Below the pieces are notes generated by a model. The model ran no database searches, was not told where the DNA came from, and saw nothing but the letters and a program-made list of their open reading frames with translations. Shown here piece by piece: positions 17,094 through 46,618 of a stretch of DNA of 64,000 bases. The first letter of the stretch is position 1; every line of letters starts with the position of its first letter. Location: the sequence record NC_041936.1; one strand, 5' to 3'. The stretch is from Escherichia phage ECD7. The position numbers and the translations under genes were made by a program.

Positions 17094-17125
17094 CTAAAAA
17101 CGAAAAAGCCACCCTTTCGGATGGC
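17094..17125 (-). terminator. rho-independent terminator
   Basis: Hairpin GCCATCCGAAAGGGTGGC + TTTTTCGTTTTT on the minus strand. Confidence 0.6.
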
Positions 17126-17359
17126 TTTTGATTATATTTTATTCACGTCCATTTGTATAGTAGTGTTTGAATCGACCTTTGCTAAACTCGTTAAACATAG
17201 TAACCAATTTACCATCCCTTTCCAATGATAACCCTTCCTCGTCTTAGATGGGTCTTCCGATTCGGCAGTAATTGAACACGCGAAAGTATGAGGAAGCCAA
17301 ATGGTTGTGTTAATGCTAGTATTCTTTTACTTCTGGTATGTATCCCAATGTGACTAACA

Positions 17360-17758
17360 TTAAGCCAATCGAGTGAGTTTATAAATTGTTTTAAAGCATA
17401 GAGCTTTGATATCGTCTAAAACGCTCTGTAACGAGCTATCAACATCATTATAAATCTCACTAGCCATTTGCGTTAACTCTTGCAAATAGGCAATTTCGCT
17501 CATCTCCTTGCGGACGACCAACGTTGGCTGATAACGACCAGTGATCCCAATATTGGTTTCAGTGAAATCATCAACCAATTCTTGCATTTCAAGATAGAAC
17601 TCTTCTAGAGCCTTATGTTTTGCATAAGATCCAGGACCAGTTACCCCAAAATGCGCAGAATGCATATAAGTAACACTCATCAGACATTCACCGATAAAGC
17701 GGTCAACTTTATTAGCTTTCCCCTCTTCGGACGTCTTTCGAAAATCACTGAATTTCAT
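17360..17758 (-). CDS. Dps/ferritin-like protein (putative)
   Basis: ORF 17360..17857 trimmed to MKFSDF; HSAHFGVTGPGSYAKH...EEFYLEMQELVDDFTE has the His-x12-His and Asp/Glu spacing of a Dps ferroxidase site. Confidence 0.45.
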   Translation of the reverse strand: MKFSDFRKTSEEGKANKVDRFIGECLMSVTYMHSAHFGVTGPGSYAKHKALEEFYLEMQELVDDFTETNIGITGRYQPTLVVRKEMSEIAYLQELTQMASEIYNDVDSSLQSVLDDIKALCFKTIYKLTRLA

Positions 17759-18047
17759 GTTCTCGATTCTCCATATTATGCAACATAACAAACTGTTGTG
17801 CGGCATATTCCCCCATAATAAAACACTGCTTAGAATCCATACATTTACTACGAGCATACATCTTCATAATATGGGCATGAAATTTCTGGCTGGTTTCAAT
17901 GGAAGGAGATATTTTGTTTACATATACTATCATTGCACCGTCGAAATAATCAGTAAAGTCACCAGTTGGATCATATTGATCAGCACTGACACTTCCGACC
18001 GCAGTCAAGCATATTGCCGCTGTTAGAGTTTTACGAATAAATGACAT
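17745..18047 (-). CDS. secreted/periplasmic protein, rI-like (putative lysis-inhibition regulator)
   Basis: 100 aa; N-terminal signal peptide MSFIRKTLTAAICLTAVGSVSA; two-Cys C-terminal region resembling T4 rI; sits next to tk as rI does in T4. Confidence 0.45.
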   Translation of the reverse strand: MSFIRKTLTAAICLTAVGSVSADQYDPTGDFTDYFDGAMIVYVNKISPSIETSQKFHAHIMKMYARSKCMDSKQCFIMGEYAAQQFVMLHNMENREHEIQ

Positions 18048-18055
18048 AAGTCATT

Positions 18056-18096
18056 CCCCCAGATTAAAAATATTCAGTTATATTTATAATCTGGGG
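18056..18096 (-). promoter_or_regulatory. 10-bp stem hairpin (CCCCAGATTA..TAATCTGGGG) containing a late-promoter TATAAATA box (18081-18088) and overlapping the SD of the rI-like gene
   Basis: Inverted repeat between the tk stop and the 18047 start; TATAAATA read on the minus strand; SD GGGGGA lies in the 3' stem arm. Confidence 0.5.
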
Positions 18097-18115
18097 CTTT
18101 ATTTATGATTAACTC

Positions 18116-18712
18116 TTATTTGGTAGTACCGTCAATAAAATGTTTACGGCACACAGAGACATATTTATCCTCTGCACCAACTTCTATTTGAGCACCATCG
18201 CGAATAACATTACCCTCTTTATCTACACGAAGGACCATTGTTGCTTTCTTGCCACAATGACAAATACCCTTCATTTCGACCAGTTTATCAGCAAATGCCA
18301 TTAATGCCGCAGATCCTTCAAATAGATTGCCCTGAAAGTCGGTGCGAAGGCCATAGCACAGTACAGGGATATTTGCATCATCGACAAGCGCACACAAGCC
18401 TAAAACATGCTCTTTAGTCATAAATTGGGCTTCATCTACAAATACAGCATCAGGACGCCATCGATCCGGTCTACGCTTACCTAACGATTCACGATAAACC
18501 AAATCGAAAAGATCATCCGATTTAGTGAAGGTGATCGCTGGAGCACTTAGACCAATTCGGGAAACAACTTCACTTTCTGAATCTCGATTATCAATCGCTG
18601 GCTTAAGAATTAATACTCGCATATCACGTTCGGTATAGTTATAAGCACTTTGTAACAGAGAAGTTGATTTGCCAGCGTTCATAGATGCATAGTAGAAATA
18701 TAGTTGCGCCAT
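18116..18712 (-). CDS. tk: thymidine kinase
   Basis: 198 aa; P-loop SMNAGKST, VFVDEAQF, C-terminal Zn motif CHCGK...CRKH. Confidence 0.9.
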   Translation of the reverse strand: MAQLYFYYASMNAGKSTSLLQSAYNYTERDMRVLILKPAIDNRDSESEVVSRIGLSAPAITFTKSDDLFDLVYRESLGKRRPDRWRPDAVFVDEAQFMTKEHVLGLCALVDDANIPVLCYGLRTDFQGNLFEGSAALMAFADKLVEMKGICHCGKKATMVLRVDKEGNVIRDGAQIEVGAEDKYVSVCRKHFIDGTTK

Positions 18713-19005
18713 TAATTAATCTCCAAAAATCCAGCAAGACCTAAACCGATATAAGTCCAGATACAAAGGAAAAAGAAGCAAACACCCATAGCAAAGATAA
18801 ATCCGCGTAGTGTCTTTGGATAACCTACCCAATATTCCCGACCATCTTCTAACCGGATCAACTTATTGCCTTGCGAGTCCATATCAACTACAACATGTTT
18901 ATTTCGAGATTGCAATAGATATTGTTTTACAATCTCTACACCCGCCATAATAACAATAACGAAAATAAAAGTCCACACAACAAGATTAATGATAGTCTCA
19001 AGCAT
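18712..19005 (-). CDS. hypothetical membrane protein
   Basis: ORF track 97 aa; two hydrophobic helices. Confidence 0.45.
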   Translation of the reverse strand: MLETIINLVVWTFIFVIVIMAGVEIVKQYLLQSRNKHVVVDMDSQGNKLIRLEDGREYWVGYPKTLRGFIFAMGVCFFFLCIWTYIGLGLAGFLEIN

Positions 19006-27962: not shown

Positions 27963-28008
27963 AATTTGATTCTCCGTTTAAGAAAGTGTGTTTCGTTTCG
28001 ATGGGTGT

Positions 28009-28037
28009 ATTATGCTATAGGCGTGATCTGGTGTCAA
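28009..28037 (-). promoter_or_regulatory. early promoter TTGACA-17-CATAAT (near-identical copy of the 27046 cassette core)
   Basis: Shares about 30 nt with the cassette at 27020-27055. Confidence 0.5.
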
Positions 28038-28054
28038 CAACTTTTTTAAAAATT

Positions 28055-28088
28055 TTAGGCAATAAAAAAGCCACTCCGAAGAGTGGCT
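28055..28088 (-). terminator. rho-independent terminator
   Basis: Hairpin AGCCACTCTTCGGAGTGGCT + TTTTTTATT on the minus strand. Confidence 0.6.
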
Positions 28089-28237
28089 TATAGGGAAGGT
28101 AGCGAATCTTCCTTGTCTCCAACCTGCTAGCGGCCTAGCAAGTGAATGCTTTAGCGTACCGGATCACCCCATACGCTGTAATAAATGCGGCTAGGTGACG
28201 TCCAAATCATTCTAACCGCGCTGTCTTTAGTTCACTA

Positions 28238-28456
28238 TTATTTATATCGCTTTCTCTCGCGACGTTTTTGATCTTCTTCCTTGATAGAGTTAAACGCATC
28301 AAAAAGACACATGACACTGATAATGAACATAACCGTATTTTCTACGATATCCCACGGCTTCGCATCAGTACAGATCCCCCAAACGGTAAGAAATGCAAAT
28401 AGTGCAGAAGAGATCACAAGCATGATACTTGCTAAGATATAAAAAGTCATTTTCAT
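28238..28456 (-). CDS. small hydrophobic membrane protein
   Basis: ORF track 72 aa. Confidence 0.4.
   Translation of the reverse strand: MKMTFYILASIMLVISSALFAFLTVWGICTDAKPWDIVENTVMFIISVMCLFDAFNSIKEEDQKRRERKRYK
28239..28246 (-). promoter_or_regulatory. TATAAATA late-promoter-like box overlapping the last codons of gene 28238..28456
   Basis: Exact match to the T4 late -10 consensus on the minus strand, facing a 150-nt non-coding stretch that ends at a terminator; could be chance. Confidence 0.3.
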
Positions 28457-34427: not shown

Positions 34428-34901
34428 CTATTTGTTAAGCCCTTTAAAGCCAAACACTTTCTTTAATGCATGTTCGGTTATGATCTTAAACTCCATGTTA
34501 TGCTTTTGGCATAATTTCACGGCAGCTAACCATTTTTCAGTATTTTTTGTGTACGTCCATACTTCATGCATATATCGTTGCTTTGTCTTCGCGGTCATTC
34601 TTTTTGGCTTTTCCGGTGGCCTTGTCTCTTTAGCTGGTTTAACTTCCCATAAATGCTCCTTGCCATCATCAAACTTAACGTAAAAATCCATAAAGTATCT
34701 GTGTCTTTTCCCGTCTGTTGATGACTCATAAGGAATTACTACGGTCTCAGATCCCCATTTTGCAACTCTAGGATTGCGGTCTAGCCACTGCATGATCCAT
34801 CTTTCCCAGCTTGAACGGTATGTGATCTTACGTATATCCCCTTTATACTTTTCCTTATTCTCAGGAACATACTTGCCCTTATAAGTGTTAGATCCTCCCA
34901 T
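34428..34901 (-). CDS. 4: head completion protein gp4
   Basis: 157 aa starting MGGSNTYKGKYVPENK; T4 gp4 position opposite gene 53. Confidence 0.75.
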   Translation of the reverse strand: MGGSNTYKGKYVPENKEKYKGDIRKITYRSSWERWIMQWLDRNPRVAKWGSETVVIPYESSTDGKRHRYFMDFYVKFDDGKEHLWEVKPAKETRPPEKPKRMTAKTKQRYMHEVWTYTKNTEKWLAAVKLCQKHNMEFKIITEHALKKVFGFKGLNK

Positions 34902-34916
34902 TTTAGCACCCTTTAT

Positions 34917-34924
34917 TATAAATA
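34917..34924 (+). promoter_or_regulatory. late promoter box TATAAATA upstream of gene 53
   Basis: Exact T4 late consensus about 32 nt before the ATG, in the divergent 4/53 intergenic region. Confidence 0.55.
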
Positions 34925-34956
34925 CATAATACTATTTATCAATTGAGGGTGATAAA

Positions 34957-35511
34957 ATGCTCTTTTCTTTCTTCCCTGCCATTGAATACAACGGCAAGAT
35001 GATTACTGACATTGTGCGCAATTACCGCGCATATTTCAACGCAATAATTTCTGATTATAACATACAAACATATTACATTCAAGGTAGTCCACGACCGGAA
35101 CAAGTTGCATATGAAGTATACGGAAACCAACAACTTTATTGGATCTTGCTGATGCTTAATGACGTATACGATCCGTTCCATGACTGGATCACCGATCAAG
35201 AGACAGCATATGAATCAGCCGAACAACGATATGCAAATGTAGGAGGAAATCAAGTATTATACCACGTTGATATTGACGGAAACAAGTATTGGAATCTTAC
35301 CGAATATCCGAAAGGATCAAGCAATTGGTATGATAAAGGGGATATTCATCACCGTCATTTGCAGTTTCAGGGTGCATTATCGGCAGTAGACACACTGGAA
35401 GATGCGATCCTCCGTAATGAGGAACGACGCAAGATCAAGATCATAGATCCTACACAAATTAAACAATTTATTAACGCATTCATTCGAGAAATGGAAAAGG
35501 CTGATGTGTAA
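34957..35511 (+). CDS. 53: baseplate wedge protein gp53
   Basis: 184 aa; first gene of the late block ahead of gp5; TATAAATA late promoter upstream. Confidence 0.75.
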   Translation: MLFSFFPAIEYNGKMITDIVRNYRAYFNAIISDYNIQTYYIQGSPRPEQVAYEVYGNQQLYWILLMLNDVYDPFHDWITDQETAYESAEQRYANVGGNQVLYHVDIDGNKYWNLTEYPKGSSNWYDKGDIHHRHLQFQGALSAVDTLEDAILRNEERRKIKIIDPTQIKQFINAFIREMEKADV

Positions 35512-45688: not shown

Positions 45689-45693
45689 TTATA

Positions 45694-45718
45694 AGCCGTC
45701 CTCGTGGGCGGCTTTTTT
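45694..45718 (+). terminator. rho-independent terminator after the methyltransferase-like gene
   Basis: Hairpin AGCCGTCC-tcgt-GGGCGGCT + TTTTTT. Confidence 0.55.
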
Positions 45719-45728
45719 GTATGTATTT

Positions 45729-45736
45729 TATAAATA
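45729..45736 (+). promoter_or_regulatory. late promoter box TATAAATA upstream of gene 9
   Basis: Exact late consensus 28 nt before the gp9 ATG; SD GAGGA. Confidence 0.55.
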
Positions 45737-45763
45737 ATACATCATAACATGAGGAATTAAACA

Positions 45764-46618
45764 ATGGCACAAGTTCCAAAGAAAAGAATAGACACAGGTA
45801 CTGTCGGCAATCCATCGACTGGCGATATCTTATATGATGGCGGTAATAAAATTAACGATAACTTTGATTCAATATATGACGCATTTGCTGATCAGCGGTT
45901 TAAAGACGTAGACCACGGCGTGGGAAGAATGGTTATTCATGCAACCGGATACTATCAGAAGCATCCACGTCAAAGCTACGCTGGTTCCGCTGTTGAGATT
46001 GGGAGTCTACACGATATCGATACAACTCAAGGCGCACTTATTGCTATTCTACCTAAAGCGAAGGTTGGTGAGGGTGTTGTATTCATAAATAGTAACGGTA
46101 GCCTTTCAACGACGACACCGCTCAATATTCGAACTCAAGCAGGTGATTCTATTAGCGGGTATTCCGGTGATGCTACAATAACACAACCATTTTCAAAAGT
46201 CACTGTTTGGTGTACTGCCGTTGAAGGTAGTCGCGTAACATGGCGATTGGGTATCGAAAGTATGTTTACCGATACAACAACGCCATTAGATAAAACAGTT
46301 AACGTAACTGGAGTAGCAACAAACGTTGCTATTGCCGCAAAAACAGAATACGTTTCCATCAAATTATTAACTACCGCTAGCAATACATCCGGTTCAAAAA
46401 TGCGTTCAAGTGAAACGCTACTAATGATTGATTCTAAAGCCGGAAAAGTTTATGCGACGGAATATGCAGTTTTGCAGAAGACAGAAGATGAACTATACAC
46501 GGTTCGTTATTTCATCGGTTCCGGCGATAAAGTATATGCAGAGTATAAGGCTACTGGCGAAAATATTCGTTTAGCAGTTAAAGCCGTAGACACTATTAAA
46601 ATCGGGGTTGCTACATGA
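45764..46618 (+). CDS. 9: baseplate wedge / long tail fiber connector gp9
   Basis: 284 aa; N-terminus PKKRIDTGTVGNPSTGDILYDGGNKINDNFDSIYDAF parallels T4 gp9. Confidence 0.85.
   Translation: MAQVPKKRIDTGTVGNPSTGDILYDGGNKINDNFDSIYDAFADQRFKDVDHGVGRMVIHATGYYQKHPRQSYAGSAVEIGSLHDIDTTQGALIAILPKAKVGEGVVFINSNGSLSTTTPLNIRTQAGDSISGYSGDATITQPFSKVTVWCTAVEGSRVTWRLGIESMFTDTTTPLDKTVNVTGVATNVAIAAKTEYVSIKLLTTASNTSGSKMRSSETLLMIDSKAGKVYATEYAVLQKTEDELYTVRYFIGSGDKVYAEYKATGENIRLAVKAVDTIKIGVAT

Follow-up and report, generated by a model that had tools for sequence, protein, structure and literature searches.

The antiholin gene rI of the RB49-like Krischvirus phages is probably controlled by a translation switch of the kind known from T4 gene e, in which RNA read through from the upstream tk gene would fold into a hairpin that buries the Shine-Dalgarno (SD) sequence of rI, whereas transcripts begun at a late promoter lying inside the hairpin would lack its 5' arm and leave the SD free. 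This reading is drawn from a 64,000-nt stretch of the genome of Escherichia phage ECD7 (NC_041936.1; hereafter the window, meaning the whole stretch that was analysed), a Krischvirus with 97–99.5% identity to RB49-type phages, and from comparison with its relatives. It would extend a mechanism well known from T4 to an antiholin gene in a different genus, and brings in no new principle. The annotation of rI and the prediction of a late promoter in RB49 have likewise been published before. A search of the literature found no statement linking rI to such a hairpin, and rI is absent from the lists of genes with this device, though an earlier mention in Paddison 1998, Miller 2003 or Desplats 2002 is possible.

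Between about 14.7 and 20.8 kb of the window every gene lies on the minus strand, on which tk is followed by a 68-nt spacer, rI, the overlapping rI.-1 and an intrinsic terminator:

18116–18712, minus strand: tk, thymidine kinase (Pfam TK PF00265, E 9.6e-52; named tk in the annotation of RB49 and its relatives)
17745–18047, minus strand: rI, antiholin or lysis-inhibition protein of 100 aa (Pfam, PHROG and 6PSK matches; RB49 annotation)
17360–17758, minus strand: homologue of rI.-1 (DUF5856), 132 aa (Pfam PF19174, E 3.1e-21; PHROG 858, 1e-43; RB49 annotation)
17104–17129, minus strand: intrinsic terminator closing the rI/rI.-1 unit (11-bp stem, then a T-run)

The tk gene is an early gene, upstream of rI and co-directional with it. 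At the other end, rI.-1 overlaps the end of rI by 14 nt and forms the second gene of the late unit; its product is uncharacterised and carries the label 'transcriptional regulator' by homology alone. The published RB49 predictions list the terminator of the unit as 'RB49ORF084c<--rI'.

The original prediction had taken the ORF at 17745–18047 for a protein with a signal peptide, resembling T4 RI in a two-cysteine C-terminal pattern and in its position next to tk, and formal alignment bears this out. The protein matches the Pfam Antiholin family PF24205 with an E-value of 1.6e-23 and 82.8 bits (cut-off 27), residues 4–97 aligning to positions 3–94 of the 96 in the profile; it further matches PHROG 1246, 'lysis inhibition' (3.7e-26), and the chain 6PSK_R of the solved T4 RI structure (E 0.009), and the RB49 record names the ORF rI (RB49p086). 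Its N-terminus, MSFIRKTLTAAICLTAVGSVSA, is hydrophobic and signal-like, and Nolan et al. 2006 report a SignalP site at residues 1–23 for RB49ORF086c, which from the matching numbering we infer to be rI. Cys69 and Cys75 are invariant across 11 RI sequences from 10 genera, in an alignment with eight invariant columns. The surroundings follow T4, whose transcribed strand carries tk, rI.1, rI and rI.-1 in succession: here too rI lies downstream of tk and directly upstream of rI.-1, which it overlaps, the difference being that rI.1 is absent in Krischvirus. A tk.1-type gene was considered for this ORF and discarded, as in T4 too one meets rI after tk in the direction of transcription, and as the profile matches leave no ambiguity. 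RB49 encodes t as well, the gene being named in its published terminator list. Judged by sequence homology, then, the 100-aa ORF is rI, a T4-type antiholin, and binding of the holin T and lysis inhibition are attributed to its product on the same ground.

The spacer between tk and rI, which reads ...UAA GAGUUAAUCAUAAAUAAAG-CCCCAGAUUAUAAAUAU-AACUGA-AUAUUUUUAAUCUGGGG-GAAUGACUU-AUG, holds the elements of the putative switch, and a search for repeats found a single inverted repeat in it, with 17-nt arms (18096–18080 and 18073–18057 on the minus strand) that are 94% complementary, with one mismatch, around a 6-nt loop:

18080–18096, minus strand: 5' arm of hairpin I, CCCCAGATTATAAATAT, present only in RNA begun upstream (tk read-through)
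18081–18088, minus strand: predicted T4-type, gp55-dependent late promoter box TATAAATA, 33 nt upstream of the rI ATG
18074–18079, minus strand: loop of hairpin I, AACUGA, holding the predicted late start G18075
18057–18073, minus strand: 3' arm of hairpin I, AUAUUUUUAAUCUGGGG, which includes the first four G's of the SD
18056–18060, minus strand: SD, GGGGG, 8 nt ahead of the AUG (read from the sequence; the Makalu_002 record annotates a ribosome-binding site)
18039–18056, minus strand: small hairpin II, GAAUGAC-UUAU-GUCAUUU, abutting hairpin I and present in both RNA forms

The perfect 10-bp repeat first noticed at this site, CCCCAGATTA/TAATCTGGGG, is real and makes up the lower part of the longer repeat, but its perfection is specific to the allele of the window. 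As RNA, hairpin I has a folding energy of -20.1 kcal/mol (z = -5.5), against -6.7 ± 2.4 for dinucleotide shuffles, none of 200 of which was as stable; it is kept in the minimum-energy folds of read-through RNAs of 129–311 nt, which include 70, 120 or 250 nt of upstream tk RNA. An Rfam search returned no family at the hairpin and two sub-threshold chance matches elsewhere. The box sits in the loop-proximal part of the 5' arm, where it had been placed at the outset. The SD was rightly expected to be occluded, but it had been drawn as a partner of the 3' arm; it lies in that arm itself, the first four of its five G's forming the last four bases of the arm and pairing with the CCCC of the 5' arm. 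Hairpin II joins the spacer to the G of the AUG and to codons 2–3, so that the AUG is partly in its loop and partly in its stem; counterparts with other sequences occur at the rI start of T4, RB69, VP8, 4S and Rgz1. Two features count against a switch: the AUG stays outside hairpin I while four of the five SD bases are inside it, and GGGGG is a non-canonical SD. Translation from a short upstream ATG at 18053 can be set aside, as this lies 1 nt from the G-run.

That the box is a late promoter is supported by the company it keeps. The bare TATAAATA motif is not enriched in the window (five copies found, 6.3 expected), but its placement is non-random: four of the five copies, that of rI included, stand 27–33 nt upstream of an SD-preceded ATG opening an ORF of at least 100 aa, the other three of these at 27–32 nt. 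The late promoters that Nolan et al. 2006 predicted for RB49 number just 17, and one of them, Pl:48756 (minus strand, tk/rI), is at the site of the rI box. According to Golec et al. 2010, citing Paddison et al. 1998, the T4 rI operon has a late promoter between tk and rI.1, and also an early promoter 3.3 kb upstream. Among the loci compared, an exact TATAAATA precedes the first gene of the rI unit by 24–33 nt (49 nt in Miro) in Krischvirus and in seven other T4-like genera, represented by T4, RB69, Morganella phage Rgz1, Cronobacter phage VP8, Serratia phage 4S, Enterobacter phage PG7 and Klebsiella phage Miro, and the segment directly downstream of the Krischvirus box is AT-rich, matching the description of T4 late promoters. 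These last four lines of evidence mark the box as a late promoter, as far as sequence can predict one. With the box set at -13 to -6, after the geometry of T4 promoters, the predicted +1 is G18075, a position given by geometry and not a mapped end. This start falls within the hairpin loop, and the late RNA would therefore have a 28-nt leader with the 3' arm and without the 5' arm.

Other promoter assignments fared less well. A sigma-70 promoter with TATAAA as its -10 element finds a best -35 candidate with three of six matches, and a promoter scan made no call; a divergent late promoter on the plus strand, as at genes 4/53, is at odds with the variation of the plus-strand arm among alleles (TAAAAATA, TTAAAATA or TGAAAATA) and with there being no plus-strand gene to follow it. 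When the same arrangement was sought at the other exact late boxes (five in the window, and three more in an additional 38.5 kb of RB49), the one similar place was the divergent 4/53 region. A second box within an inverted repeat, at 34905–34950, is accounted for simply by a pair of divergent genes with similar SDs.

The centre of the repeat lies near the promoter and the start site, and operators overlapping late promoters are known in T4 introns, where I-TevI binds at its own late promoter (Edgell et al. 2010); one might hence suppose that the repeat acts as DNA, either as the operator of a late-promoter repressor or as a cruciform modulating promoter opening. This appears highly improbable, given that RI.-1, by homology, is the sole linked candidate for a DNA-binding regulator, and that the repeat reaches precisely to the SD, which points to a role at the level of RNA.

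Such an RNA-level role is in keeping with the computed accessibility of the rI start. Opening the SD costs 13.5–14.4 kcal/mol in read-through leaders versus 3.0–3.5 in late leaders, and opening the start region (-18 to +12) costs 25.6–26.8 versus 9.3–9.8 kcal/mol, computed differences of about 11 and about 16 kcal/mol, respectively. The predicted release of the SD in a leader started within the hairpin, a further part of the original prediction, thus holds up in computation. For calibration, the 92 other long ORFs in the window were scored with 90 nt of upstream RNA each, giving a median of 4.0 and a maximum of 16.1 for opening of the SD window, and a median of 7.8 and a maximum of 17.7 for the start region. 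On the read-through leader the values for rI are 23.3 and 26.7, above those of every other start among the 93 compared in the window; on the late leader they are 8.0 and 9.5, inside the range of the other genes.

Read-through from tk would be needed for the closed form to arise. A scan of the window called no terminator-like site between tk and rI on the gene strand, nor do the RB49 TransTerm predictions, and the nearest upstream early promoter predicted in RB49, Pe:52389, is about 3.6 kb from rI, which mirrors T4. By our estimate, a ribosome terminating on tk would not melt the stem, since the tk stop codon is 19 nt ahead of it. From these elements we infer tk read-through, a late start within the loop and an effect on translation, which would combine as follows. 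Early in infection, RNA polymerase from the upstream early promoter would read through tk into rI, and the resulting RNA would form a hairpin of 15–16 bp as soon as the 3' arm is made, pairing four of the five SD G's; with this hairpin abutting hairpin II and its AUG, the 30S subunit could not bind, and no RI would be made early. Late in infection, RNA polymerase with gp55 would begin at TATAAATA within the 5' arm and start the transcript in the loop, at about 18075; having the 3' arm alone, this RNA would keep its SD single-stranded, and RI and RI.-1 would be translated. RI would then be synthesised at the same time as its target, the late holin T. On the cited account of the T4 operon rI is transcribed early there too, so early silence of rI would be no family-wide requirement.

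Of the sequence comparisons at this site, that with the most diverged relative is the more informative. The hairpin stretch was aligned from 13 phage alleles and three metagenome alleles, with at least 93% identity. In all of them CCCCAGAUU and AAUCUGGGG, which form the lower stem, are unchanged, as are the box, GGGGGAAUGAC and the 6 bp of the upper stem, the lower 9–10 nt of the 3' arm being invariant throughout. The sole substitution in the stem is at the base facing A10, where the window has T, JSE has C, and RB49 like the majority of the alleles has A; GEC-3S has an inserted T at the site of this tenth pair. The pair is consequently broken in most Krischvirus genomes, RB49, JSE and GEC-3S among them, and their hairpins of 9 + 6 bp have energies between -16.6 and -18.4 kcal/mol. 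All 13 phage alleles nonetheless keep the hairpin (-16.6 to -20.1 kcal/mol), with an SD-opening cost of 14.3–14.8 kcal/mol, and the three metagenome alleles carry the same variants as the phage alleles. Compensatory changes were absent from the 13 phage and three metagenome alleles, sequences too similar to give such a test power; as the stem substitution is uncompensated, the case for the structure is one of thermodynamics and conservation only. In JK32, the most diverged relative, identity is 77% over rI (57% at third codon positions) and 47% over the spacer from the tk stop to the stem, which has a 6-nt indel. Both lower stem arms, including CCCCAGAT, the lower part of the 5' arm, are 100% identical there, as are the box and the stretch from SD to AUG. 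CCCCAGAU is not known to contribute to T4-type late promoters, and that it is conserved fits what selection on pairing would produce. A search of IMG/VR by RI protein found no more diverged relatives; a 20-mer from the 5' coding part of rI had no match in IMG/VR and four in the metagenome collection, namely three near-identical alleles and one unrelated sequence.

It might be argued that the palindrome is a chance by-product of an AT-rich box and a G-run SD meeting an upstream CCCC, a structure under no selection for any function, with rI translated from any RNA: TATAAATA is nearly self-complementary, covariation is lacking while one stem position drifts freely, and the box within an inverted repeat at 34905–34950 has a simple explanation. 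Such an accident is nevertheless quite improbable in view of the z of -5.5 with 0 of 200 shuffles as stable, the perfect retention in JK32 of CCCCAGAT, a segment with no known promoter function, beside a spacer of 47% identity, and the rank of the rI start region as the most occluded of 93 scored. Irrespective of how it arose, a helix of -17 to -20 kcal/mol on the SD ought to make a difference.

The translation switch proposed here has well-described parallels. Uzan and Miller 2010 review four T4 genes, e, soc, 49 and I-TevI, in which read-through RNA forms a helix sequestering the ribosome-binding site (RBS) and a late promoter lies in the 5' half of that helix, and the same device occurs in I-TevI, I-TevII, I-TevIII, segB and Aeh1 mobE (Edgell et al. 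2010). The likeness to e, soc and I-TevI that had been proposed for this locus is borne out by the geometry of box, hairpin and SD, which is that of the reviewed cases. Like rI, T4 gene e is a late gene of the lysis pathway on an early-transcribed strand, with a helix over its RBS in read-through RNA; it encodes an endolysin, however, and rI an antiholin, and unlike in T4 e the main helix of Krischvirus covers the SD only, the AUG being held in the second, small hairpin. For T4 e a 100-fold effect has been shown (Uzan and Miller 2010), and for Krischvirus the difference is a computed one. According to the same review, no gene e is apparent in RB49. In I-TevI, I-TevII, I-TevIII, segB and mobE, as would be the case in rI, the hairpin hides the RBS on early or middle read-through RNA and the late RNA is too short to fold. 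These genes differ in being homing endonucleases embedded in essential genes, whereas the rI locus is without a mobile element, and I-TevI in addition represses its own late promoter.

The closest comparison is with the orthologous operon of T4, which shares with Krischvirus tk upstream, rI.-1 downstream, the same late box 25–33 nt ahead of the first gene of the unit and, probably, both early and late transcription. In T4, however, rI.1 lies between promoter and rI and the promoter has no hairpin (z +0.8), the SD of rI being inside a small local hairpin with codons 2–3; Krischvirus lacks rI.1 and has the large promoter-containing hairpin. When the 90 nt leading up to the rI unit were folded for the several phages, T4, RB69 and Rgz1 showed no significant structure, although the late promoter is present in each, and this counts against the switch. 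VP8, 4S, PG7 and Miro each have, ending immediately ahead of the box, a canonical terminator hairpin and its T-run, and so does RB43 by the published predictions. Thus, Muldoonvirus VP8, Serratia 4S, Karamvirus PG7, Slopekvirus Miro and RB43 resemble Krischvirus in having a G+C-rich hairpin at the late promoter of the rI unit that would limit early rI; theirs acts on transcription and leaves the SD untouched, whereas that of Krischvirus has no T-run, takes the SD into its stem and would act on translation. Among the genera compared, only Krischvirus has the box inside a hairpin that covers the SD.

The frequency of such insulators at this junction, with a terminator right before the late promoter of the rI unit in VP8, 4S, PG7, Miro and RB43, suggests another reading, namely that the Krischvirus hairpin is mainly a transcript-boundary element, be it an antisense late terminator for the plus strand, a weak or atypical terminator, or a stabiliser of the 3' end of the tk early message, with the late promoter just happening to lie beside or within it and occlusion of the SD incidental. 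On the plus strand the stem is indeed followed by the T-rich CTTTATTTAT; in the TB34 record a terminator is annotated at this place, on the strand that does not carry the genes, and in three further records the stretch has a terminator feature, counted here irrespective of strand. We regard this as unlikely. The stem has no T-run after it on the gene strand (GGGGGAAUGACUU), in keeping with the absence of a terminator call there; no plus-strand gene within several kb has a transcript that needs stopping; and a boundary role accounts neither for a 3' arm that runs exactly into the SD nor for a box inside the 5' arm. The boundary and translation-switch roles may also coexist, as they are not mutually exclusive.

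Returning to the translation switch, its counterparts in related phages make it seem that insulation of rI from upstream early transcription is common in the T4-like phages. Time-resolved multi-omics of T4 place rI.1 in the class 'early-RNA_late-Protein', which it shares with e, and rI among the late proteins with middle RNA; these classes are consistent with delayed translation of the rI unit even in T4. One may go further, tentatively and at odds that we think lean against it, and suppose that the antiholin is throttled post-transcriptionally throughout the T4-like phages by interchangeable devices: a small hairpin over the SD and codons 2–3 of the T4 type, probably opened by ribosomes finishing rI.1; terminators ahead of the late promoter in several other genera; and in Krischvirus, following the loss of rI.1, a single fused switch that would render RI strictly late. 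If this were true, it would explain the pattern of early or middle RNA and late protein seen for rI.1 and rI of T4, and the timing of RI supply, besides the instability of RI, would set the window for lysis inhibition triggered by superinfection.

Lysis inhibition is a classic case of a virus sensing other viruses, and it depends on a very short-lived antiholin that needs continuous synthesis. If RI is made only from late transcripts in Krischvirus, the supply of antiholin would be tied to that of holin by RNA structure. The part of the 5' arm outside the box would offer a simple mutable handle on how the timing and dose of RI shape the timing of lysis. With this locus, the few T4-family genes listed so far with a promoter inside a hairpin would be joined by a regulator of lysis, and by one from a different genus, and the related phages taken together would present three alternative ways of insulating rI from early expression.

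In several genera, folding of the fetched loci of the antiholin gene rI places its AUG within a small local hairpin, in which the bases immediately 5' of the AUG pair with its G and with codons 2–3. In T4, RB69, VP8, 4S and Rgz1, the upstream strand of this hairpin is the SD GAGG itself.

Hairpins at the rI start codon (L numbers denote the fetched rI loci)
Window 18039-18056, (-): ECD7
L004, about 1483-1510, (-): T4
L023: RB69
L005, about 888-909: VP8
L006, about 876-897: 4S
L018, about 661-685: Rgz1

The stems vary by genus—GAGGCC/GGCCUU, GAGGGAC/GUCCCUU, GAGGGCC/GGUCCUU and GAAUGAC/GUCAUUU—and these differences look like covariation. The same comparison of rI loci found no such hairpin in PG7, Acj61, 133 and Miro. 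The rI allele of Escherichia phage Skers (L014, about 150-165) lacks 13 nt (TTATGTCATTTAT), the usual rI ATG among them, and its annotated start is the ATG immediately after the G-run (MTRKTL...), which leaves hardly any SD spacing. The 13-nt loss comes from a sequencing error, or else the allele is a natural low-RI variant.

The late box TATAAATA of the rI unit comes 0–6 nt after the end of a G+C-rich terminator hairpin and its T-run in VP8, 4S, PG7 and Miro, and in PG7 the T-run continues into the box.

Terminators before the rI-unit late box
L005, 614-650: VP8
L006, 602-640: 4S
L017, about 392-418: PG7
L022, about 531-560: Miro

Three of the other late boxes in the window are listed below.

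Other late boxes
34905-34950, (+): second box within an inverted repeat, CACCCUUUAU-UAUAAAUA...UAUUUAU..AGGGUG
28239-28246, (-): exact TATAAATA, overlapping the stop codon of a 72-aa ORF
45690-45770, (+): strong terminator (AAGCCGUCC...GGGCGGCUUUUUU) followed by a box

The first of these was considered as a further read-through switch and rejected. The repeat separates two divergent genes, 4 (34428-34901, -) and 53 (34957-35511, +), both named from their size and neighbors only; because its two arms are the SDs of these opposed genes and its opposite strand bears GATAAATA, the symmetry is explained instead by divergent late promoters. The roughly 275 nt that follow the box at 28239-28246 (27963-28237) hold neither a tRNA nor any ORF that reaches 50 aa, and this box may be a late promoter whose product is a small RNA or a very small protein. 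A small AT hairpin (AUGUAUU...AAUACAU) holds the third box in its loop, 27 nt 5' of a 284-aa ORF whose SD stays free.

Immediately 5' of tk, window 18712-19005 (-) encodes a protein of 97 aa that is predicted to span the membrane twice, and the stop of this gene overlaps the tk start. The protein has no Pfam match and strongly matches a PHROG of unknown function (3.4e-63); by numbering, its RB49 counterpart is RB49ORF088c, for which two transmembrane segments are listed (Nolan et al.).

Multi-omics tables for T4 (PMC9697503 supplement) class tk as a middle protein with early RNA, rI as a late protein with middle RNA, and rI.1 as 'early-RNA_late-Protein', along with e, ipII, ipIII and segB. Shortly 5' of the rI start hairpin, the T4-type phages have the stop codon of rI.1, a position that suggests translational coupling between rI.1 and rI.

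T4 RI has been described as carrying an uncleaved releasable signal anchor, whereas the N-terminus of Krischvirus RI (17745-18047, -) resembles a signal peptide with a VSA|DQ site. For RB49ORF086c, taken here as rI, a SignalP site is listed at 1-23 (Nolan et al.). This signal-peptide-like N-terminus, together with the lack of rI.1, suggests that the lysis-inhibition module of the RB49-type phages differs from that of T4 beyond its regulation.
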